Counted from the first letter of the stretch, positions 4,320 to 62,774 are shown. The stretch is 64,000 nt of DNA from Catajapyx aquilonaris (GCA_000934665.2 KZ538006.1:62001-126000); one strand, 5' to 3'. Made by a program: numbers and translations. Notes: a model not told the origin generated them from the letters alone.

Positions 4320-4733
4320 TGTAATAATTATGGTTCAAAATAAGCGTGTAATAATAATAATACTCTTATTTTGGCCGGTGAATGGGGTAGACAAACAATT
4401 AAAATAATAAATAAATAAATAAATAAGGTGAAGTGGGGTAAGTGCATACACGGGGTAAGTGCATAAACTGGCCGCCATATTATAATGAAAATGGCTGACA
4501 TGCTCACCTCTTGTGGGGATGTGATGTGCAACTACACAAAAGAGTGCCTGACGTGTTTTGGTGTCGTCAGCCATTTTCATTCCAATATGGCGGCCCCGTG
4601 TATGCACTTACCCCGTGTATGCACTTACCCCACTTCACCTTACTCTTATTTTGGTCGGAGAACGGGTTATAGACAAATAATTAAAATTATAAATAAATGA
4701 ATACTCTTATTTTGACCCATAATTGCTCGTTAC
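4320..4733. mobile_element. Older degenerate TIR element hosting the 4426-4640 MITE
   Basis: AATTATGGTTCAAAATAAGCGT (4326-4347) is inverted relative to ACTCTTATTTTGACCCATAATT (4703-4724). Internal ~60-bp direct repeats start TACTCTTATTTTG at 4361, 4641 and 4702. Confidence 0.55.
4426..4640. mobile_element. MITE, pogo/Tc1-mariner type (TA TSD), about 215 bp with ~75-bp TIRs
   Basis: TA-AGGTGAAGTGGGGTAAGTGCATACACGGGGTAAGTGCATA...TATGCACTTACCCCGTGTATGCACTTACCCCACTTCACCT-TA. The TIRs contain an internal tandem GGGGTAAGTGCATA repeat. Confidence 0.85.
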
Positions 4734-7246: not shown

Positions 7247-7667
7247 CTATCGGTCTCAATTACTTTCGGCCACTTTATCCTGGTCTTAAAGCAACCCTTC
7301 GCACAGTCCCCACGGTGAGGAGGTGTTATTGTCTTCAATAAGCTGTGGGACAGGAAGAATGTGATCTTACTGTAACTGTGGGGTCTACTGTCCACTTGTG
7401 GGGACATTTTGCGTCCCCACATCTTCACACACCGTTATAGTGGGGACACGTCCCCACAATTTCGATTTGCAGGGTTTCACAAAAGTACATTTCTCTCAGC
7501 CTAGGTTAGTTAGGGTAGGTTAGGTTAGGTTAATTTACACTAGCTTCGAAAAGTTGAGTATTAAACGTCCCCGTAGCTTATTGAGAGCAAGTCTGTGTGC
7601 GTGTGTGTATGAAGGGTTACTTCAAGACCAGGATAAAGTGGCCGAAACTAATTATTGAGATCGATAG
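7247..7667. mobile_element. MITE family X, long copy (TIR CTATCGGTCTCAAT..TTTCGGCCACTTTATCCTGGTCTT)
   Basis: ~55-bp TIRs, inner inverted repeat TCAATAAGCT/AGCTTATTGA, and an internal (TAGGT)n tract at 7502-7531. A second copy lies at 14254. Confidence 0.8.
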
Positions 7668-31423: not shown

Positions 31424-34400
31424 ATGCCGCCCCCGATTCCCTGTCCTAGTCTGCAAAGATTGGCGCTGAGACCTGCAGCAGCTTACATGTACAGAGCGTA
31501 TGACCGGCACGTACACTACTGTACAGCACCGGAATGTAGTCATGTTAGGGAATGTATTACATCTGACGATGTCAGGCTGTGTTTGTCTCCGGTGGAAATT
31601 GCACTAGCGTTTCATGCAAGGATCAACCGGCAATGTGAGTAAAAATTACCGACTTGCGTCTTGGCCTAATTAAACTCATTGAGTACATTGTATTTGACAG
31701 TGGTGGGAGATGCTACCCAGCATGAAACGAGTGGTGACGAGCAAGATGAAAATCATGAAGACGACGACGATGCACCAAACGCCCGCACCAGTGGCACAGA
31801 CCCGAGGACGACCAAAAGACGACACAGCGCGGTTAGTATCATATGCACTCTGTACTATTCAAGTAGTGATAAAATAGATAGGAAGTGTACTGCATTATTG
31901 TTAATGCAAATATTCTAATCCTCAAGGAATCACTGAGTGATTCAGATCGTTTTGAATTTCAGGTCTTCAAAAAGTAATTTGGTGCAAACAAAAACTTTAT
32001 GGACCAGAAAGTGCATTAATGGGCCATCTATATTCCCAGATGAAAAACGACTGTAGGCGATCATTCTTTAACATGCGCGAGAGTGTTCATGCGAGAAATT
32101 ACGACAGGTTGACTGAGAAGAATGTGCCAATCTCATTTCTAGAGTTTAGTATTTGAATTATTGCCTGTAGCACAGTCATTTTAAAATAATTTTGACAGTT
32201 TGGAATTAGAATATTAATTTTCAATATACTCGTACTTTCATTACAGGAAACTGAGAGTGGGTCAAGAACCAAAGTATTACGACGCGACAACTTAACCAAC
32301 GTAAGTAAGGACCTCTGTCACATGGATATGCTTTGTTGTGATTCAGATTTTCTATTGTTATAGGTCCAACACGAAGTAACCTCCGGAGTTATCCAACACA
32401 CCGAAGAAGGCAGTAGTTCAATGAACATGCAGGAGATGGCTTACGATATGGATCAAAAGATTCTGCAGATAATGGAGGAATGTCCAGGCCTAACCCATGA
32501 GGAAATAGCACTGTCCTTACAACTACAGCAATCTTTTGCCAGTAAGACAGAGATGCAGCAGCTAATAGATATCAAAGAACGACTAAGAAGAGCAGTGAAC
32601 TTGTATATAAACGAGATCGAAACTCATCAGGCTGAAGGACACGGACCCAAACCAGCACTCCCACACGACTCCGAAGACGTACCACCACCGTACTCAACTC
32701 TTCCAGATCTGGTCGTAGCATCATCAACTTGTATGTATCCTAGAGATGAAGGCTTGCCAGCTCGGATGATGTCCCTGCTCAAAGCGCCTATTATCCACCC
32801 AGGAATTCAATATGAAGATTCGCAGGTGAGTTAGTCACAAATGTCGGTCCAAGGACATTTCTATAATTTGATTTTCTTCCCAACTAGAACAATAATCTGC
32901 AGCAGCATCCATCATCCGGTCCATCACTGGATCAACCTGGATGTAGTCAACAAGCAAGCTGCTCTTCAGGAAGACAATGTGATCCAGCACTTCCTCCAGG
33001 TGATGGTCCACCTGGGCATTCAGCAAGAGGTGATCCTATATGGTATCCACCAAGAAACGGTGATCCTAATGGTGGTCCAGCTGGAAACTGTGATCCTCCA
33101 GAAAATGGAGCGTCCGAAAACGGTCTCCATTCATCAGATGCAGAACCTGCAGACTGCGACGAATTCTCAGGACAAGCATCAGGACAAAGGGGGCTCCCAA
33201 GAAATATTCGGTCCATAAATCATTCTCCTAATAAACCCATCCTGTTTCTTCACCGAGGCCCACGTGTGTCACACCTTAACATCACCCCTGTCTCAGCCAT
33301 TCCCAAAATCACCAGACACCATCTTATCCTTCCAAGTTCAGCTCCAACCCGGCCATGGAAGTGTGAGGTGATGCAACAATTGCGTGAGTACATGGACCAG
33401 CTCCTGTGCTGGAACCCCAGAGGAAGGGAGAGGCTGTACAAATTCACAACCACTTACGAATGTAACAAGCTGAAGAACCAGACCCTTCAATTGAGGTATC
33501 TGAAGGGGTGCTACGTGGCATCGCGTTTACTGTTCGCAAGCGGATTTCAGGAAGCGCGTGTTCAACTTTTGGCAGGTTTGGATCAACAGACTCTGAGCGA
33601 CTTGCGTCCAGCTCTTTCCCAGATGAAGCGACTTGAGTTGAAACTTGAAACGTTGCCATATTATTACCTCCCGACTAATGGGCTTATGTACAACGTGAGC
33701 CACACCATGATGTACGCAGCTAACTTGACCACACTTCGCATCATATCCAGGCGGGCATGCATTAATCGCCTCTTGTTGACAATCGCTCATGAATGTGTTC
33801 ATCTGAGGGATCTGGACATTTCGGAATCAAGATTCTCCTATAAGGGCATTGAACGCATGTGTTTCTTCGGCGAAAATAACGAACCTACACCATTGGCAAA
33901 GTCACTGGAGGTCCTCAAGCTCAACAGCCTCATCCCACCTTTCTGCTTAGGCGGTAAATTCAATTTACAATCCTATACCGTGTGTGGAATTTTGCGAGCA
34001 ATGAGCAACCTTAAGAGTATATACCCCTATCCGCACACTTCAGAAGCTCTTGCCTTGATGTATCCGATGGAAAACATGGCTGCACTCAACCACACCACAG
34101 CCTTGACTTCCTTCAGTGACAGTGACACAAAAGAGAGGAACGCGCAGTTGGTTGTCACGGTCTGTCCCGAAGTGACCAAGCTGCACTTGAGCCGAGTGTT
34201 TAACGAGGACATTATCGCGACATTCGCTCAGATGAAGAATGTGGTGCACTTGATAATGGAAGACTTCGAAGCCGCTGTTATGACCTATGTACTCGCTCCG
34301 GGGAGACCATCTTTGAGTGTGATTGAACTCTTAAATGGACAAATTACGTGCGACATGCATTCATTCATTTCGTGGTTGCCTGACTTGGACGAGCTGCATT

Positions 34401-34930
34401 TCTACGAGGTAATAATCCAGGACAACCCCTACATGGTCCACACCAATCCGAATGTGTCGTCTGGAAGCGGGAAAGGCAAGTCGATTGTTGGCCAGAACGT
34501 AAAGCGAAAGGGGAAAAACTCATATGCTGGTTCAGAAAAAAAGTTATGCAAGAATGTCACAATGGAAAGGCTGCGAGTTCTGGTCTTAATTAATTGCGAA
34601 TTTAGCTCGTCAACCGATTTCCTAATGGTGCTGGACGCATGTCCCAATTTGGAGGATCTGACTGCAAGGGACAACTGTGGCAGCTTTTCGGTTGACGACG
34701 AGGACATTCGCCTGTTGTACCACGGTGGTGGACCTCGACAACTCAGGAAAATCACCCTGGTAGGCGTGAAGCTGACGATGGACTCTGTCGAGATTTTTTT
34801 GAGCTGTTGTCCCCACTTAAGGATGTTGGGGAATCTCAGGCGCTGGTACGACATTTCAGAGGAAATGTGCGACTTTTACAACAGCAGCCTGCAATCAGCG
34901 AATCAAATAGCTGTGCTCCAATGGAGGTGA
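31424..34930 (+). CDS. RNI-like leucine-rich-repeat protein with BC-box-like N-terminus (gene A, about 966 aa); coding exons 31424-31634, 31701-31831, 32247-32300, 32364-32825, 32888-34930
   Basis: Five exons join in one open frame through GT-AG introns of 66, 415, 63 and 62 nt (phases 1,0,0,0; donors GTGAGT, GTTAGT, GTAAGT, GTGAGT). The protein starts MPPPIPCPSLQRLAL. The C-terminal ~500 aa carry LRR motifs (CVHLRDLDISES, CPEVTKLHLS, CPNLEDLTA, CPHLRMLGNLRRW). A likely upstream 5'UTR exon ends at 31206 (AAG|GTATGT), with an acceptor at 31415. Confidence 0.85.
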
Positions 34931-35184: not shown

Positions 35185-36883
35185 ATGTCTTCTCTCTGTT
35201 GTCCAGGTAAGGCAACTGTACGTATTAATATGATCTAACATTTTCTGCAACAATAGTCTGCGCATGATATAGCTTAAAATATCAAGGTAACAATATCGCA
35301 TGTGACGTATGCGCTTGTGTCCACACAATTCCTGGGCGCAATTTTTCAAATCGAAATTGGGTACATCCGAGTAACATGAAGCTTTTGGTCCCAATTTTTC
35401 AGATTTTCCTCGCCCACCACTTCCAACTTTAAAATCACGAGCTGTGTCCATGATATCAATCAACATCCTGCAGTACATCAAGGCTCATTTCAAGACCTGC
35501 GACCACATCACGCACACTTTCCTGTGCCGCCACCTCAAATCCCGGAGTCAATTTCTGAACCATCTCCCGGACAACCTGATGTCCGATATTCTGGAAGACA
35601 TGCTGCACCGCCACAACATGGCCCCTCTGATCGTGCGTGCCTCCCAGCGATCCATCACCACCGGTCTCTTGGCCTTCCAATTTGTCTTCCGCCCTACCAT
35701 GGTCAGCCTTTCCCTCAAGTCCCCTCCACGACTCATATCCCTCCTATTGCAACACCTAACCCACTCGTTGCGACACCTCCGCATAACCTTCCAGAAGGGC
35801 CTAGAGGGTCACCACACGCACCAGAACAGCATCAGACAACTGGCTGCCATCCCTCTGAACAACCTCTCTGAACTTATACTGACTGACAACAACTCCGGAA
35901 AGGCAGACGCATTGTTGATTATGTTGGGCAGGACTTGTGTCCGACTACGTCTGGTCATCCTAAGAGGATTCAAGTTGGAGGAGTCAGCGTTGGTTCGAAT
36001 GTGTCTGCCTGACTGGAGCGAGAATAAGCGGTACACCCTGTGCCGTCGTAATCCGTGTTGTGAGACATTGCAAGTACTAGGGATTGAGGAGCCGACAGAT
36101 CAGCTGGGTAAGAGGATGAGGAAGAGGGTCGAGTCGATTGGGCTTCTACTGAGGGTGCTGCCCAATCTGATGGACCTGCCTTTGTCCACCAGCATCGGAC
36201 GGTCGCTCAGAAGGTTGCCCAGAAGTGGAGGACCAGCCATGCTTGAGAGGGTGGTGGAGTGCTGTCCGGATGATAGGTGTTTGGATGCCATTCAGAACTG
36301 TCCCAGCATGAACGAGCTGAGTTTAGGGAACTTGAAAAATAGGGTGCTGGACTTGAACCGTGTGTTTGCGACACCGCAGTACAGCTTGAGGGTAGTGAGG
36401 TTGTCAAATATAACGTGGAATTTGAACCTGGGTATGATGGCCAGTTGCTGGCCGCTGTTGCATGAGCTTAACTGTGCCGATATGACAATGAGCGTAAGTG
36501 ACGAGGTTGCAATTTTGAACCGACTTGAGACCTTGTCCATCACGGACGTAACATTTGACACAGCCCATTCCCTATCAGCCCTACTCAAATCATGCCCCAA
36601 TGCCAAGAGGGTAACAATTTCAGACTGTAGCTTTTCACACGGGATTGAATGGTCCGATAGTGACTTGACCGCAATTGTTCAACACCAATCGTTAAGTTTG
36701 TTGACCCAAGTTCATTTTTGCAATCTAAACTTGAGCATTGCCAACGCCTACCTGTTGGTTCAGACCTGCCCGTTGCTGTGCCATTTGCAGCACGTTTCAA
36801 AATGGAAAAAGTGTGACAGCGCAGATTTTGCAGCATTTCATGACTATCTGAGCAAATGTCACTATCGCATACTGTGTGACTAG
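35185..36883 (+). CDS. RNI-like leucine-rich-repeat protein with BC-box/cullin-box-like N-terminus (gene B, about 500 aa); coding exons 35185-35206, 35403-36883
   Basis: The 479-aa ORF extends upstream to acceptor TTTTTCAG|AT at 35402/35403. A 22-nt ATG exon (MSSLCCP, CCAG|GTAAGG) joins it in phase 1. Motifs: PPLPTLKSRAV, LNHLPDNLMSDIL, CVRLRLVILRG, CPSMNELSLG, CPNAKRVTISDC, CPLLCHLQHVSKW. Confidence 0.85.
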
Positions 36884-39990: not shown

Positions 39991-40824
39991 ATTAACACAT
40001 TGGAAACACCATGAGACAGCCTGGTTTTGATAATGACCTACACACGTTGGCTTTCATCTGAACGTACTGAACAATATAGGCATTTTTTTTACAAAAAAAT
40101 GCTAACATGCGACATTCATTTAGTGTAAATAATTGCGGATTACAGCCCAAACCGTGTGTATCATTAACAACGTTTCTTAATAAAGGAACAAATGCATGAT
40201 GACACCCAACCTGAGCATACAAATGGCTGGCATCAAAATAAGTGGCCTAAATTGATACCCGGTGGACGCGTGGCTTGCAACCGACACCAGTACCCATTCC
40301 TCACGCACAATCACAATGTTACAAACCGTAACAGGAGACCGGCTTGCATAAGAGGACCACACACACGTTGGGCCACGAGTCAGGTGCATTATTACACATG
40401 AAGAATGTTGATATAGGTTGCAGATGAGAGAGTCGCGGTCCCGGAACCGGTCTCGGTTTTCTTCTGAGTGTGTACCCCGATAAATCCACCGTTGCTGGTA
40501 ATACCCGCACGGTAGGATAATGGTTTGGGAGGATTACAAAGTGGTTGTAATGTCTCGGCGGAGGAGGAGACTAACAAATGGGCTGGTGGAGAATAGGCGA
40601 GGCGTGGACTCGCTTCACGTCACAAATTCTAGCCCACCTGACTGATAGACGTAAAGTGACGCTAATAACTCGTAATTTTGTGCCTAAACGCGGTCCCGCC
40701 CATGTAAATAAGTCCATGTTACGTTGCACACTACAGCACCGGTGTACAATTCTATTACCTTTCCTGGAGGTTGTCCTACTCGACCGACCGCGATCGGTGC
40801 GAGACCAGCACTTCAAGTACCCCC

Positions 40825-40908
<84 letters not shown>
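40825..40908 (+). repeat. (AAT)28 perfect microsatellite
   Basis: 84 bp of uninterrupted AAT repeats. Confidence 0.97.
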
Positions 40909-43221
40909 CTCCGTCAGCCTGTCCCAACTTTCCGGTTGGTTTGTCCTTGATTATGAATGCAAGCATATTAGTCGGCACCTGATATCCTGAAGTGCAAAGG
41001 TGATTATAATTATTTACAATGCAAATTAATGATTGACAAATTGCTTCTCATAGATGGGAACCGCCTGACGTCCCGGTTCCGTTATCGGCCGCGGCGTGAA
41101 AACTTCGGCCTTGCTGTGCAGAATTTTTTAATAGACATGATGGGCAGCAATTAAGAGAACACGCTAGAATTTTAACGAAGTCGTCCTGCTATTAGCACAT
41201 AGTCCTATGAGCCAATAGCATGACTATAATTTCGTTTGCAATATATTAAAATTTCTAACTATGCACCTACTCTCAAATATTTTTACATTTTCATCGTATA
41301 ATATCATTTCGAATCCCAGGTATGATTCAATTGAACAATTTGTTGTAAATTTGAGTTGAAATCAATCAATTGTGTTTAAAAATTACCATGAAACTTGAAT
41401 CACATTCTCTGTTCGGACCAAAAGCATTTGGGTGCTATTTCTCATAGATGAAGAGATTAATTTAGAGAGCAATTAGTGGGTTGGGTGTGTTCCCAAGTCC
41501 CCAGCTTGTTTCTGATCTCGTTTATAATTGCTGGTGGCCTCTGTGTGGGGCCTCCCTTGTCTCTTTCCCTGATGGTCCGAAGTTTCAATTGCGTCACCCC
41601 CGGAGGCAATCCAGATTCCGCGGCGACAGAAATGCCTTGGGGGGAGAGAAATGTATTGCGGTCGCCTCAACGTGAGGGACAAAGCTTGTTCAGTGTGCCT
41701 CCAAAAGACATGTGGATCTGGTGGTGAAAATGTCAGAACCGGCTTGTTCCATTGTTCTGCATGAGGAAAATACAACCGTTTGCACCCAGGATCAGACCTC
41801 CGGGACAGTGAGCAACGACCACCGAGAAAGGGTCGACAATTTCAGAGATCCCCTTTCCTGCTGGGGTCGACTGGGATCACCCCAAGAGAACCAGCTTGCC
41901 AACCCTGATTCAATTTAGTGCACGTGTGTTTGGCCAAAAATTATAGCCCTGTCGTTTGCCCGTGCACAAATCATCCTCCATATTTAATAAGCGCTTGCTA
42001 CCTTAAACAGCACTTGCTGATCCTTACTGCTGTTATCATCAAAATCCACATCCGGATACGATGATGAAGAGCTGCTTGCCAATTTATAACCCTGCTGGGT
42101 ATACCCACGGAGTGATCTTTGCCTCAGAGTGTACAGTAGGCACCCTTTAAAATGATGTGATCATTATGTTATGTCTTTTAAAGAACAGGGCACACTTTCA
42201 CCTTCGGTTCTGTGATAAGACACCACAACCTTTTTTTTAAAAAAAAAACGTCTCCACCTTCAATCTCTAGCAAGCAGCAAGTTCTGTAAAGAAATCCTCT
42301 AGGATTGGGTGGAGTACACCTGAGGTCCCCCCCAATCCAATCTCTTCTCTCTTTTTTTTTGTTCTGATTGGCATGCTGGAAGTGCTCTCCTTCTTTCCAG
42401 ATCACCAAAGCCTTGGGTTCCCCCCACAACCAGCCAGGTCCACCCCATCCATTAGAACACCCCCCGAAATTCCTGGAGACACTAGGACGTGTGACAAAGG
42501 CGCCAAGTTAAGAGGAGGGCTCGCCTATGATAAACCCCCCTGCTTAGTGTCACTGTTCTTTACACTGGGACGATACCAGCCCCTATTCAGGTGGGAGGTT
42601 GAGCCTCGTGTAGCGCGTTATTCGCTTGTCCCAAGTCGGAACAAGTCCATTCCAGTATCCTCCAGGTCTGATTTGTGTGTGGAAAAGCCTCGAGCACGTG
42701 GACAGTTCCACGCCCAGTGTTCGCAAAATAGTAACAAAACGCAGTGCACGGTGCAACATTGTCAATAAGCCAGATAACGAAATCCGGTGCTCGGCATGTT
42801 CGCAATTCGATTGACTGATTTGCAAAACCGCGGGAATGGAGGGGGGGGGACCCTAACCGCACAGTATTGTAAGTCAGGGCACGTTCCACAAATCCCACTA
42901 TTCCACAGCCCCCACGCAGTTTGGGTTTTTGATACACATACCTCGGGCACCCCGCTGTGTAATTATGTAGATCTATGCTCCGCCACGAAAGGCGTAGAAC
43001 GGAAACATACACTCCGCCTTCGTGATGCAATACTGAATTAATCACCCGCACCCAAAGTACCTGACACTCTCTCCCAAACCGCAAAGTCTGCTGAGACTAC
43101 CTAGGAAGCGTCGCTGAAATAACACATAAATCCGGGATGTTGCCATAATCGTCGACGCTAATTGTACTGGTCCGCAAACAGGACCTTTTCTCAAAACAGT
43201 ATGCGAAACGGACACAAGTAC

Positions 43222-43438
43222 CTTTGATGGCGGCGGTCACTTTGTCCAAAAAGTGGATGGTGATTGGCAGGAGGCTAGAATCCAGCCGGTAGGTGCCTTC
43301 GTGATGTTTGACCAAAAATATTCGGGTGTCCAGATGTCGAACTCGGGACGAGCAGAATGAAGGGTTGCCGAAACCTCCGACGACGACGATGGTGCCTTCC
43401 ACACTACTGTCGCCCTTTAGGACGCGCTTCACTCGAAC
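43222..43438 (-). CDS. AGRN: Agrin-like NtA proximal cassette, coding exon 2 (C-half of NtA)
   Basis: Acceptor CCAG|GTT at 43439/43438. Translation VRVKRVLKGDSSVEGTIVVVGGFGNPSFCSSRVRHLDTRIFLV...YRLDSSLLPITIHFLDKVTAAIK-G. Donor AAAG|GTACTT at 43222/43221 (217 nt, phase 1). Joins exon 1 in frame. Confidence 0.88.
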
Positions 43439-43440
43439 CT

Positions 43441-44197
43441 GGTCCCAGTTGAATCGGAGACATTTGTTCGTACATTACATTCCAGAAGTTATAGTCATTT
43501 ATGGGACATGTACGGAGAGTGAAAATGGGAACAATGCGCTAAACAGATCATGGAAGTTGCAATATTGTCGTTAGAAAGAGATTATTTTTTATTTCTTCTC
43601 ACTGATGTGTCAGCATGTTTTCTCAGCTGCTTTACGACTCACGAGCCCGTTTCTGACTTACAGAAAGTAGATTATAATAGTTATGGCACAACGGGAATCT
43701 CAGTCTAACACAAGTTGTCACACTCTGTACAAGTTTGCAACAACAATGGCGACTGAAAATATTGATGACTTGATTGATTAGAATCAAATCAAATTGCGGA
43801 AAATCTGAGATAACTTATGGTGAGCATAATTCAGAATCGGCAATTTTGCCATGATTTGCTTTGCCTTATCACTGACATTTGATTTGAAGTCGATGAGAAA
43901 TTTTATGACAGCTCAACTTTTGGAAATATGTTATTTTAAAGAGGTTACAATTTTAACCACGAATATTGAGTAAGCATCCTGTTGTATGTGCACAAATTGA
44001 TGAAAAACTATAATTATGTCAGATAATTACATATTTTTCTAATCTCTATCAGAAATTTTTGTCAAATTCAAATGTTTTATTAGGCTACAACATTTTATTA
44101 TTATCAAATCGAACAAATCGGTGCTGGACAATCGGACCATTTCCAAACTCTCCGACATTTCGGTCGCTCAACAATCATCTCCGAATCAACTGGGACC
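43441..44197. repeat. 20-bp inverted repeat (19/20 match) at the two ends of the proximal NtA intron
   Basis: 43441-43460 GGTCCCAGTTGAATCGGAGA versus the reverse complement of 44178-44197, GGTCCCAGTTGATTCGGAGA. Confidence 0.9.
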
Positions 44198-44211
44198 TCC
44201 AACATACGCAC

Positions 44212-44448
44212 CCTGACGTCATACTCCTTGGCCGGCTCCACATCATTGTTGTCGCGAACAGAAAGCAGCGGTGGTCCCGTGGGCTTCTCGACCCTGACCA
44301 CCTTCCCAGTGAAGACCAAATCGGCCCTATCCTCCCGATCCTCCAGAGACGCCTCCCGACAGTGCCGTCGAGGGCGCCTCCTCCGAGAAGCCCCCGTCAC
44401 CACCACCACAATCGCCAGAAGCACCAGAAGCACCTTTGTCGTCACCAT
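44212..44448 (-). CDS. AGRN: Agrin-like NtA proximal cassette, coding exon 1 (signal peptide + N-half of NtA)
   Basis: ATG at 44448 with an in-frame TAG just upstream. Translation MVTTKVLLVLLAIVVVVTGA-SRRRRPRRHCREASLEDREDRADLVFTGKVVRV...EYDVR. Donor AGG|GTGCGT at 44212/44211; 237 nt, phase 0. Confidence 0.88.
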
Positions 44449-44632
44449 CGTCGCCACCCACTTCTAACCGCGGATGGCCACCACCACTTCCATTCGCTTC
44501 TGGAAGAACTCTGGACAGAAACAGAAGCGTGCCGGCCGCCCTTTTTTTTCAACCCGAGGTTCTGGGATGCCCATTAGAGACCTCTGACGGCCACGGCCCA
44601 CCTCCATATGTGGAGAGGGTCTCTTAAGTATT

Positions 44633-44639
44633 TTTTATA
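44633..44639 (-). promoter_or_regulatory. Possible TATA box of the proximal NtA cassette
   Basis: TATAAAA on the minus strand about 190 nt upstream of ATG 44448, in otherwise GC-rich sequence. Motif match only. Confidence 0.25.
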
Positions 44640-47600
44640 CTCCTCCTCTCCCCTCTCTCCACCTCCCGACCAATTTTTTTTGGTAGGGTTCTCTCCGGGG
44701 AGGAAGCGAAAGAAGGTTGTGGTGATCTCCCAGCGTAGAAAGTTCTATTAAGGGACTTGGTCCGACCCACCCCTGAGTGTGGAATAAATCATTTTTGCTG
44801 GGTGTGTGTAATAATTATTGGGGTCTTTCTTGGACCGCTGATTGGGGATGGACATGTCACATGTGTCCGCTCTAATAAATCGGATGATGCAGAAAGTCGT
44901 GAGGAATTTGGCGCATAAGTAATTGCACAAAAAAAATTTGATTGAAGGCCCAATATATCGTGTTGGTGTTAGAAATAGGCCCAAGGTTTGGGTATGCAAA
45001 TGTTAAGCGAAAATAAACCGGCTGCACGTGTGGTATACATGGTAAAAATGGTCAGAGGCAACAATGGCAGAAAATCGTGCTTTTGTATAATTTTTTTCCA
45101 GGTGTTGTCTTAAACTAACAAAAGCACCGCTGTAAATGCTGTTTGTTATTGTAATACCTGACCTATTGTGGCAAAAATAGGCTGTCCTATTTACAATTTC
45201 GAATGAACACATTGTATGCAGAGTGGTGCCTAAGTCTAAAAAGAATTAATATTGTCCAACCTAAGGAACAAAATTCGTGGTTTCAAGAACTCTCACCTGC
45301 AGACTATTGTATGTCAAATATTATTTTTACATCATGTAGCATGTAAGTGGCTCATATGAGTAACCGGACGGTTTATTTACTTTCACATCATTCCCGTTAC
45401 AATCTTACGTGCGCAGCATCTTGCAAATCCTCGCGCCATCAAATTACCAATGATGATTTATCAGCCATTAACCCTCCCCGACAAGCAATTATTACAGGCC
45501 TCCAATCGATAGAGATCGCCATGACCGTTAATGACCGGCATATTCATTAATCCCGCGTAAATCAGCATCCACCAAGATCCTCAGATGTGTCCGGAGCAAC
45601 GCGTAAAAGTTTCTCGGCTGTCATGTACCACAATCGGCCATACATGGTCAGGCGTGCGACACCAGCATAAATCGGGGCCGAAATTCCGCATCCGGTAAAC
45701 ACCCTGTCCGGTGACTTTTTTTTTCCCCAGCCACATACAAAAAAGACCAGTTGAAAACCTCATCCTCCTCTTCATATGAGGATAATTCAAGACGGCATTG
45801 CCTCGATGGCTCCTCGCGCATGTCGAGCCCTGGGGCCTTCCAAATGGATGGACACGAGGTCTTGCTCTCGACTCAACTCGTCTGAATGTTTTCTCAACAA
45901 AGTTGTTGGGCAGCAATTTATGCCCTTTTAAGGACCACGACTGCTGCTATACCGGAGGGTGTAAAACCCGCGTAATGGGATGTGCCACAACTCGGACTGA
46001 ATTTTTCAGAGAAATGTATACGTTTTGTAACAGTATGTCAAACTGCCCCTGAAAAATACTGAACTTGAAAAAATATTGAAAAGTCATGCAGGTATAAAAT
46101 GGACGTGTTATGCAACAATGTTTCATCCCATAAAACTGTCAAAGGAACATATACCCAAAAGATCGTACGTAAATCAGTTAAAATCAATCTGGCGAAATAT
46201 GCATACTTCTGCCATAAATGGCCGAAAAAGGACACTGAATTAATTTCACAGGTTTTCAAAGCCCTTTTTCTCATGTGGGTTGACTTATTATTGCATAACA
46301 CCGTCCAAATAGTGCATGAATTGAATTGTTCCCATAATAATGTGCGCTATTCTTTCCACATTTTCCTTGCCCCACTGATATGCAAGAGCTTACGAATAAA
46401 AGCAATTAAAATTAACATTCAGCCGCCTGTCTCCCTGAAACGCGTGACTAATCCATCAGCTGCACCCAAACACACCACATTTTCACTACCATCTTCATTT
46501 AGATGCCAGCACATACACATTGTGTTCAGTCGCAAGAAGCTGGGTACAAGTGCTACCAAAAAAGTGTTGACTTTTGTTGGTCGTGAGGGCCGTGAAATAC
46601 GACAAAGAGATCCATTCAGCTCATCCCAATTAGCATTTCAATTGCTAGTGCTGAACTCGGGGACCTCGTCTCAATACATCAGAACACATCTTACTATATT
46701 AAACAGATGTCGCTACCCGAGTCTCGTGCTCGTGACAACAGCAATGCAAACAACACTCATTTGCTGATTCACCTTCACATAGTACGTGAATCTTCGGAAT
46801 GTCTATATACCTTGCATGCATAAAGCAGAATCGAGCTTATTTTAATTGCATCACGAAATGGCGTGAGGGTCAATAGTTGACTAGTGGTACGTACTGGGAT
46901 GAAGAACGTGTCTGGGACTGATCGCATCCACAGATTGATACCTCCATCACTCCTCAACACTCGAGGCGGGAACCAAAAAGCCAGAAATTAGCATGGAATC
47001 CATCCCCGATCCTCGTGACGGCGCCTGCCTCCTGGCTACTCCTGCTTTCAAACGTCACTTTCCCTGTCAAATTTGGTTGCCAGGGCCGAAGAATATACCT
47101 CAAGACGAGCCCAAGTCTGCACCGCCTCCTTCTCTCCCATTATACCCACCCATCGACGCCCATCCCAACCTCCTTTCCATCCCTGATTAATGGTGGAAAC
47201 CCTTTAGTTTTTTCCAAAATGCGCGCTTCTTCCCTTTCGGAAGAACAAAGGGAAGGAGAAAAAGTTGGCGCCAAATCCGTGGCTTCTACTTTCGGGTGCG
47301 GATCAGACGCGGGGAAACGCCTGTAGCTACCGCATGTATGAGCATGGGTGTGGGTGCTAAGACACGCGAGATAAAGGGACGCCACAGTACCCTGGGGTAC
47401 GGCACACCATCTCGATTAGTCTGCATTCCGATGCAATTGATGTTGAAGTATGGTTTGACAGCGAATTACATGTAGTCAAATAATATTCGGTACCCAATAT
47501 TTGGCCTTGAGAGTTTTCGTGCATGACCCGGACATACGTCCCTGGCCCATCCCATGTGTGGCCACATTCTGCACCCTCCAAACCTGGGCCCCGTGTGCTT

Positions 47601-62263: not shown

Positions 62264-62774
62264 CTCTGACTGCGGCCATAACCTTATCCAAATTCCGAAT
62301 GGTAATGGGCACAAGACTTGAGTTGAGGTAGTAGTGACCTTTCCTGTCGGGGTCAGCCACCACCAGGAAAATGCGCGTGTCCCGATTGCGAACCCGTCCC
62401 AGACAGAACTTTGGGTTACCCACGCCTCGGACAGTCACCCGTTGACCCTCTGTCAATCCGTCACTAGAATGGCGACGACCTTTGAGGACTCGCTTGACCT
62501 GCACAACCACCGCTGGAGGGTCATCAGGTCTGGACAGCACGTAGTGGTCCTCTAGTACCTCGTTGGTCAGCAGGGAAGACACTATTTTCTCCACTTTAGC
62601 CGTGAATATGTGCGTCGCCCTTTGTTCCTTCTCCTTCATGGTGCCCTCTAGACAAGGGTGGTCACGCACTGAGCACACGCACGTGCGAAACATGACCAGG
62701 AACACTAAGACTGTTAAGGCCAGCATTGCACAGCACAAATCTCGCACCCACTCGGAACCACTAAGAAGCAGCAT
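62264..62774 (-). CDS. AGRN: Agrin-like signal peptide + NtA (laminin-binding) domain, distal cassette; single coding exon ending in a phase-1 donor
   Basis: ORF 62238-62774: hydrophobic leader (MLALTVLVFLVMFRTCVC), then CLEGTMKEKEQRATHIFTAKVEKI...VQVKRVLKG...VRGVGNPKFC..RVRNRDTRIFLV...LNSSLVPITIRNLDKV. This matches the agrin NtA pattern as I recall it (C-ERALE-REEEANVVLTGTVE..VRVWRYLKG..GFGDPLIC..DTRIFFV..LNSSLMRITLRNL). Donor AGAG|GTAAAG after 62264 (511 nt, phase 1). The symbol is by domain recognition; downstream agrin exons are not in the window. Confidence 0.88.

Follow-up and report, generated by a model that had tools for sequence, protein, structure and literature searches.

Some Drosophila introns carry complementary boxes at both ends, none of them more than 150 nt from the splice site, and weak acceptors are over-represented among these introns (Raker et al. 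2009, PMC2724269). The boxes are conserved across 12 genomes and have been validated by compensatory mutations (PMC2724269). The AC-GT bridged introns of zebrafish, 61% of which lack a pyrimidine tract, are spliced without U2AF2 (Lin et al. 2016, PMC4691745), and in yeast intronic stems cut the distance between the branch point and the 3' splice site (Gahura et al. 2011, PMC3239191). Structure placed over a splice site can also inhibit, in vitro splicing being sensitive to short structures (cited in PMC4691745). AG exclusion zones mark exons with distant branch points (Gooding et al. 2006, PMC1431707). Terminal inverted repeats are found in 72 of 177 introner families, some of them without target-site duplications (TSDs), and some introner types bring a 3' splice site and borrow the 5' splice site from the target (Gozashti et al. 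2022, PMC9860276). These systems are summarized as set out in the extracts of the respective reports used here.

Here we describe an intron of the agrin gene of Catajapyx aquilonaris, the two ends of which are complementary to each other. The intron lies in a 64-kb window, by which we mean the whole stretch of DNA that was analysed (64,000 nucleotides). The sequence feature is well verified, and its function is a prediction. This is most likely a structure-assisted intron of an already known kind.

Gene organization

The agrin gene lies on the minus strand of the window and encodes two NtA cassettes, whose components are as follows.

62264-62774, minus strand: distal NtA cassette, one exon with Met, hydrophobic leader and the whole NtA domain
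44212-44448, minus strand: exon A of the proximal cassette, ATG at 44448, 79 codons, signal-peptide-like leader and first half of NtA
43439-44211, minus strand: intron inside the proximal NtA cassette, 773 nt, GT..AG, phase 0
43222-43438, minus strand: exon B of the proximal cassette, 217 nt, second half of NtA

In a comparison with Pfam, the distal cassette matches PF03146 (E=2.9e-14, profile 1-115) and exon B matches the same family (E=1.8e-11, profile 38-113). The distal cassette ends in the phase 1 donor AGAG/GTAAAG (the slash marks the junction; 62264 is the final exon base) and is uninterrupted at the column of the proximal-cassette intron. Exon A ends in AGG/GTGCGT, phase 0, and the donor of exon B at 43222 is AAAG/GTACTT, phase 1, at a position homologous to the distal donor. 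The initial annotation had correctly assigned phase 1 to the distal donor at 62264 and phase 0 to the acceptor at 43438. Counting from the first Cys up to KRVLKG gives 53 residues for either cassette, the proximal one taken as spliced; the splice proposed here thus keeps the proximal cassette colinear with its intronless paralogue.

As each cassette has its own Met and signal peptide, the two represent alternative 5' ends of the gene and not internal mutually exclusive exons. This arrangement suggests that alternative promoters give rise to two different laminin-binding N-termini, and suggests that the cassette was duplicated, with the intron lost from one copy or never present in it. No downstream common exon was found, the 59 minus-strand ORFs of at least 45 aa with at least 4 Cys in positions 1-43100 being without Pfam match, and exon B gave no match to longer proteins (127-2000 aa).

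The window contains several other elements. An upstream ORF at 44464-44493 (minus strand) has 9 codons followed by a stop and ends 15 nt short of the exon A ATG. Inside the large agrin intron, two open frames on the opposite strand (32888-34927 and 35375-36880, plus strand) encode 680 and 502 aa; neither has a Pfam match above threshold, and they may represent a nested gene or an unclassified mobile element. At about 40800-40900 a long trinucleotide microsatellite is read as Y, I and N runs in three frames. A 396-bp element with a MITE-like look occupies 7258-7653, with 48-nt inverted ends (90%) and AATT on both sides. A nested fold-back at 4326-4724 has AATT-bounded outer arms of 46 nt (72%), and its inner part (4424-4642) has arms of 48 nt (96%) and 30 nt (93%).

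Complementary intron ends and their predicted fold

At the donor side the exon reads ..GTCAGG to 44212 and the intron opens with GTGCGT from 44211. At the acceptor side the intron tail reads ..GGGACCAG to 43439, and the next exon opens with GTTCGAGTG at 43438. The inverted repeat near these two junctions has the following arms.

44170-44197, minus strand: 5' arm of the terminal helix, intron +15..+42
43441-43468, minus strand: 3' arm of the terminal helix, intron -30..-3, stopping 2 nt before the exon

The initial annotation had reported a 20-bp stem joining the intron ends, and we confirm and extend it. The outer 20 nt (+15..+34, 44197..44178) are complementary to -22..-3 (43460..43441) at 19 of 20 positions, with one U-U, and the repeat search lengthens the arms to 28 nt at 86% (24/28 as DNA), with 701 nt between them. 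As RNA, 26 of the 28 arm positions pair, two of these being G-U, and the helix leaves the donor (-3..+8) outside. When up to 3 mismatches are allowed, the 20-mer occurs at two places in the 64 kb, which are the two arms, and two such matches were obtained in none of 100 shuffles. Inverted repeats of at least 20 nt with at most 1 mismatch within 3 kb are present at three loci in the whole window. The arms consist of unique sequence with 12 distinct dinucleotides and have no AC/GT repeat pattern.

Contigs of three DNA runs from one sample cover 42000-46000 without base differences, a homopolymer outside the intron differing in length at 42840; since these runs may be the assembly's own source, the agreement is not independent support. 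A further sequencing run, X5, had no match over 42000-46000, a result that carries no information on expression. The G-U pairs were considered as a sign of strand-specific selection and dropped, as the two among the four DNA mismatches that are G-U in the sense RNA are too few. The inner arm was considered as a possible end of a Tc1-like transposon, and this candidate was rejected because the repeat runs 5 nt past the motif and has no TA flank.

Folding of the intron, the check that had been proposed at the outset, recovers the stem in both the MFE and the centroid structure. Pairing of the arms is predicted to yield -35.5 kcal/mol over the outer 20 nt and -40.8 kcal/mol over all 28 nt; the first 60 nt of the intron against the last 60 nt give -44.3 kcal/mol, a value attained by 4 of 2828 random 773-nt segments of the window. 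By equilibrium folding, which ignores co-transcriptional folding and protein binding and concerns arms 701 nt apart, 19 of the 20 outer pairs have a probability of at least 0.957 in a 1287-nt pre-mRNA context, the mean for the outer 20 being 0.945. The region of the 5' splice site is predicted to be unpaired at 0.39 on average in the same context. The MFE of the whole intron is -192.1 kcal/mol (z=-4.28 against 20 shuffles) and the interior without the arms has z=-2.19, so that the stem accounts for most of the excess stability. By these predictions, the terminal helix is strong and non-random.

A further 9-nt match, AUUUGUUCG with CGAACAAAU, had been proposed to extend the stem into a multibranch fold. 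The match exists in the sequence, but it competes with the inner portion of the 28-nt arm, and with a pair probability of 0.000 in the ensemble the extension is not retained. Rfam matched no family on 43000-44700; a mirtron was rejected on this result and on the 701 nt that separate the arms.

Anatomy of the acceptor

The description of the acceptor as purine-rich does not hold, its flank at -25..-3 being 55% pyrimidine with a longest pyrimidine run of 5 nt. The reported lack of a polypyrimidine tract is accurate for the last ~60 nt (46-55% pyrimidine across -60..-3, no tract) but not beyond, where a richer stretch begins. The following features lie upstream of the acceptor.

43502-43533, minus strand: distal pyrimidine-rich tract, -95..-64, 75% pyrimidine
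43488-43494, minus strand: candidate branch point CUAUAAC, A at 43489 (-51), mean unpaired probability 0.90
43441-43539, minus strand: AG-free zone preceding the acceptor AG at 43440-43439

Inside the distal tract, UUCAC (A at 43520, -82) matches strict yUnAy, as no other site within the final 120 nt does, and we take CUAUAAC (-56..-50) as a second candidate branch site. The AG that precedes the acceptor begins 102 nt from the intron end, at 43540. The AG-free zone is the widest AG gap in the intron, and gaps of at least 100 nt number 18 among 3718 on the minus strand of the window. Together, the distal tract and the 100-nt AG-free zone suggest a branch point that is distant from the acceptor AG, for which the sequence offers these candidate sites.

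Position and age of the intron

Comparison of the distal cassette with 1.84 billion representative proteins gave 151 matches at E<=1e-3, the best being 37-46% identical. Twenty-two vertebrate-type ORF fragments begin with unrelated residues that are followed by VRVWRYLKG; we take these to be vertebrate from their likeness to the long match P0139. In 20 of the 22 the V is directly preceded by Q (8 fragments) or K (12 fragments). Both are products of NAG codons, which fits ORF read-through of a phase-0 ..AG acceptor at the column where exon B starts, and 10 of the 12 fragments with K have in front of it a residue that no NAG codon encodes, so that this K must be the last codon of the intron. At their other end the vertebrate-type fragments read VE-G(K) and then unrelated residues, as in read-through of a phase-1 G/GTAAG donor. 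Judged by these starts and ends, exon B shares its two boundaries with a vertebrate-type exon. A further 13 vertebrate-type matches are contiguous across the intron site. The exon 1/2 boundary of human AGRN presumably lies at the position of this intron. The extracts used here state that the NtA-specific sequence of mouse is spread over at least three exons (PMC2189804) and that human Glu42 is encoded in exon 1 (PMC7160337).

Exon B also has matches in metagenomes, on two animal contigs with NtA exons.

L001, 1021-1354: 51% identity to exon B, ending at the same phase-1 donor position
L002, 250-640: 42% identity to exon B, ending at the same phase-1 donor position

Both are contiguous across the intron site, and the signal peptide of L001 must lie on a separate upstream exon. 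Many invertebrate-type matches are likewise contiguous across the site while reading into the downstream intron. Protein searches with the read-through ORFs of exon A and exon B returned no close relatives carrying the translated arms. The absence of the intron from the distal cassette, L001 and L002, together with the contiguous invertebrate-type matches, leaves room for a later independent gain. Such a gain would have had to strike one of 31 GT sites or one of 15 AG/G sites in the 454-nt spliced coding sequence, and by our own arithmetic the coincidence with the vertebrate-type boundary has a chance of ~3-7%. The sequence comparison therefore favours an old intron that the proximal cassette has kept and that the distal cassette has lost or never received.

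Alternative explanations

The origin of the inverted repeat admits readings in which the helix has no role in splicing. In one of these, which we regard as unlikely, an element with terminal inverted repeats entered a continuous NtA exon and became the intron in introner- or MITE-like fashion, the stem being a by-product. Terminal inverted repeats as in a MITE are indeed present (28 nt at 86%), they lie within 15 nt of both intron ends, excision is seamless relative to the intronless paralogue, and the intron is missing from the paralogous cassette and from both metagenomic relatives. The acceptor signals are atypical, as those of a young intron would be, introners with terminal inverted repeats, some of them free of TSDs, are known in the extract of PMC9860276, and two other inverted-repeat-bounded, transposon-like elements are present in the window, although these have different, AATT-bounded ends. 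The position and phase of the intron equal those of the vertebrate-type exon boundary, however, a coincidence already put at ~3-7%, and the 5' arm sits 14 nt inside the intron. Intron +1..+5 matches exon B +1..+5 at 4 of 5 positions, and AGGT occurs at +14..+17 and again over the 3' junction; as TSDs both were rejected as insignificant given the offsets tried. No convincing TSD was found; the best of 81 offset pairs gave a direct repeat of 4 nt, offset by 3 nt, and by our own arithmetic chance alone would produce such a repeat up to about 30% of the time. The window holds no second copy of the intron or of an arm. In contigs of the same sample (three DNA runs, at least 80% likeness), only the locus's own fall on 42868-45313 among the matches listed, and the 18-25-nt matches of other contigs, again among those listed, are placed at three other spots; as evidence on copy number this comparison is weak, since it shows presence rather than absence and missed the 19/20 arm-to-arm match. 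The lack of a TSD, of a second copy in the window and of one among the listed same-sample contig matches weakens a simple multicopy MITE, against which the initial annotation, having seen no evident TSD, had also argued. The 15 nt at 44197-44211 (minus strand), which run from the donor to where the AGGT of +14..+17 ends, continue the exon A frame and read through as VRMLE; removal of the AGGT-bounded segment would consequently keep the frame, an outcome with a chance of 1 in 3. If the repeat does mark a transposon-born intron at the vertebrate site, it would document parallel intron gain in an animal. A neutral inverted repeat without effect on splicing, arising as a local inverted duplication or a decayed mobile-element remnant, is in our estimation improbable. 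Inverted repeats this good occur at three loci in the 64 kb, hence the genome generates them, and a long-range stem spanning 701 nt may fail to form in vivo. Random placement in a 773-nt intron, however, would bring the arms to within 15 nt and 3 nt of the splice sites with a probability of only ~1e-4, and the neighbouring acceptor lacks the usual tract, so that some compensation is expected. Insertion into an existing intron would have left just 16 nt of original sequence. This geometry carries the most weight, and by it the repeat gave rise to the intron or else took shape around the intron's ends. Chance complementarity is extremely improbable; the 4 of 2828 random segments that reach the same end-to-end duplex energy speak for it, and against it stand the 100 shuffles without two 20-mer matches and the added improbability of placement at both splice sites.

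Other readings give the helix a function different from assisting the joining of distant sites. The initial annotation had proposed insulation, in which the helix makes the acceptor of exon B private to the exon A donor and transcripts from the distal promoter skip exon B, and to this we attach a low probability. A Met and a leader are present in each cassette, the two cassettes terminate in phase 1 at homologous sites, and by our own reading exon B is the first acceptor-bearing coding exon past the distal donor, to which its joining would shift the frame. The acceptor is weak and mostly sequestered in the predicted fold, and bridging structures have been reported to enforce correct splice-site pairing (PMC4691745, in the extract used). 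On the other hand, distal-promoter transcripts likewise contain the two arms together with the donor of exon A, so that the helix cannot tell the two transcript types apart; docking/selector systems have a competing copy, whereas the window holds no third arm copy, nor did a downstream common exon turn up in it. A related and equally doubtful reading treats the helix as a cis-tether that keeps a two-exon 5' cassette, nested in an intron of the upstream-promoter transcript, safe from the upstream donor. Such a tether may have originated at the duplication of the NtA cassette and, if true, would constitute a structural rule that keeps multi-exon alternative 5' ends exclusive. Far less probable still is a regulatory dsRNA element, in which the acceptor is blocked to give regulated intron retention, or the stem is a target of ADAR or of dsRNA-binding proteins. 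The 26 paired positions of 28, with the helix abutting the AG, would suit this role, and retention reads on for 35 codons and then meets a stop. There is, however, no sign of a switch, the 9-nt alternative pairing having P=0.000, and the region 43000-44700 is without an Rfam match. Insulation and the bridging helix set out below are compatible, and both may hold.

A proposed bridging helix in an old agrin intron

The explanation we prefer, to which we give a little short of an even chance, is a bridging helix that sets the donor or the branch beside a branch-distant AG in an old agrin intron. Under this model the stem probably helps both splice sites to find each other. In support of bridging, 14 nt separate the donor from the first arm and 2 nt separate the second arm from the AG. 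Against it speak the absence of the intron from both metagenomic relatives and from the distal cassette, the 701 nt between the arms, the mean unpaired probability of just 0.39 at the 5' splice site region and the inhibition that structure over a splice site can cause. We infer that the helix forms in vivo, promotes splicing and is kept up by selection.

The mechanism is derived from the anatomy of the intron and would proceed as follows. The two ends of an old agrin intron would have become complementary, and in the pre-mRNA +15..+42 would pair with -30..-3, leaving the donor free for U1, with 2 nt between the helix base and the acceptor AG. Some 50-95 nt upstream of the acceptor, before the 100-nt AG-free zone, would lie the probable branch site with its pyrimidine tract, and the helix would tie the acceptor to its own, nearest donor. 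Once the first catalytic step had joined the intron's 5' end to the branch, with the 5' arm beginning 14 nt from that end, the AG, as the sole one available, would be held within about 16 nt of the branch along flexible chain and not 51-82 nt away. The shortened effective distance between branch and AG is proposed to allow the AG to be found in the second step.

If the helix works in this way, it would provide a unique-sequence invertebrate case in which RNA structure replaces a missing adjacent polypyrimidine tract and compensates for a distant branch point, and structure-assisted pairing would extend beyond the repeat-based introns of fish and the short boxes of Drosophila. The locus, in a host gene with two alternative laminin-binding N-termini, would then also lend itself to simple minigene work, as a single stem and a single intron are combined with two donors in competition.

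Comparison with known systems

The features of the agrin intron were compared with those of described systems as these appear in the extracts used. It resembles introners (PMC9860276) and symmetrical stwintrons (PMC8469720) in having inverted repeats at or near both intron ends, in its seamless removal and in the absence of the intron from a paralogue. Unlike introners, it has no family of similar introns in the window or among the listed same-sample contig matches, its position coincides with that of a vertebrate-type intron, and its 5' repeat lies 14 nt inside. With the docking/selector system of Dscam (as described in PMC4691745) it shares intronic base pairing proposed to choose the splice sites that are joined, but with up to 3 mismatches allowed the window contains just two copies of the arm and so no competing partners, and the cassettes are alternative first exons and not an internal exon cluster.

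Closer parallels are found among introns in which structure acts on the branch point or spans the intron. As with the yeast stems between the branch point and the 3' splice site, the agrin structure would shorten the effective distance from branch to AG, and the long AG-free stretch ahead of the acceptor is similar to that of AG-exclusion-zone exons (PMC1431707). The yeast stems are local hairpins within the spacer between branch point and 3' splice site, whereas the agrin spacer would pair with the 5' end of the intron; for the agrin branch point the sequence gives candidate sites. The (AC)m-(GT)n introns of zebrafish and lamprey have an intron-spanning helix beside both splice sites, as is predicted for agrin, and donor-acceptor pairing as the proposed function. 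Their missing tract has a counterpart in agrin across -60..-3, but a pyrimidine tract is present there at -95..-64. They differ in forming a genome-wide class, the agrin intron being a single case with arms of unique sequence.

The Drosophila boxes provide a further match, with an arm close to each splice site (within 150 nt of donor and acceptor), a long spacing (more than 150 nt), a weak acceptor, an alternatively spliced gene and the bringing together of splice sites as the proposed role. In comparison with these boxes, for which the minimum is 9 nt and which are conserved across 12 genomes and tested by mutation, the agrin stem covers 28 positions, ends 2 nt from the AG and is known from sequence and predicted folding. 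Both of its arms lie within 150 nt of the splice sites and its predicted stability is beyond chance, as in the intron-bridging class. There is a nearly even prospect that the agrin intron is another example beside the Drosophila boxes, the zebrafish AC-GT introns and the yeast stems between branch point and 3' splice site.
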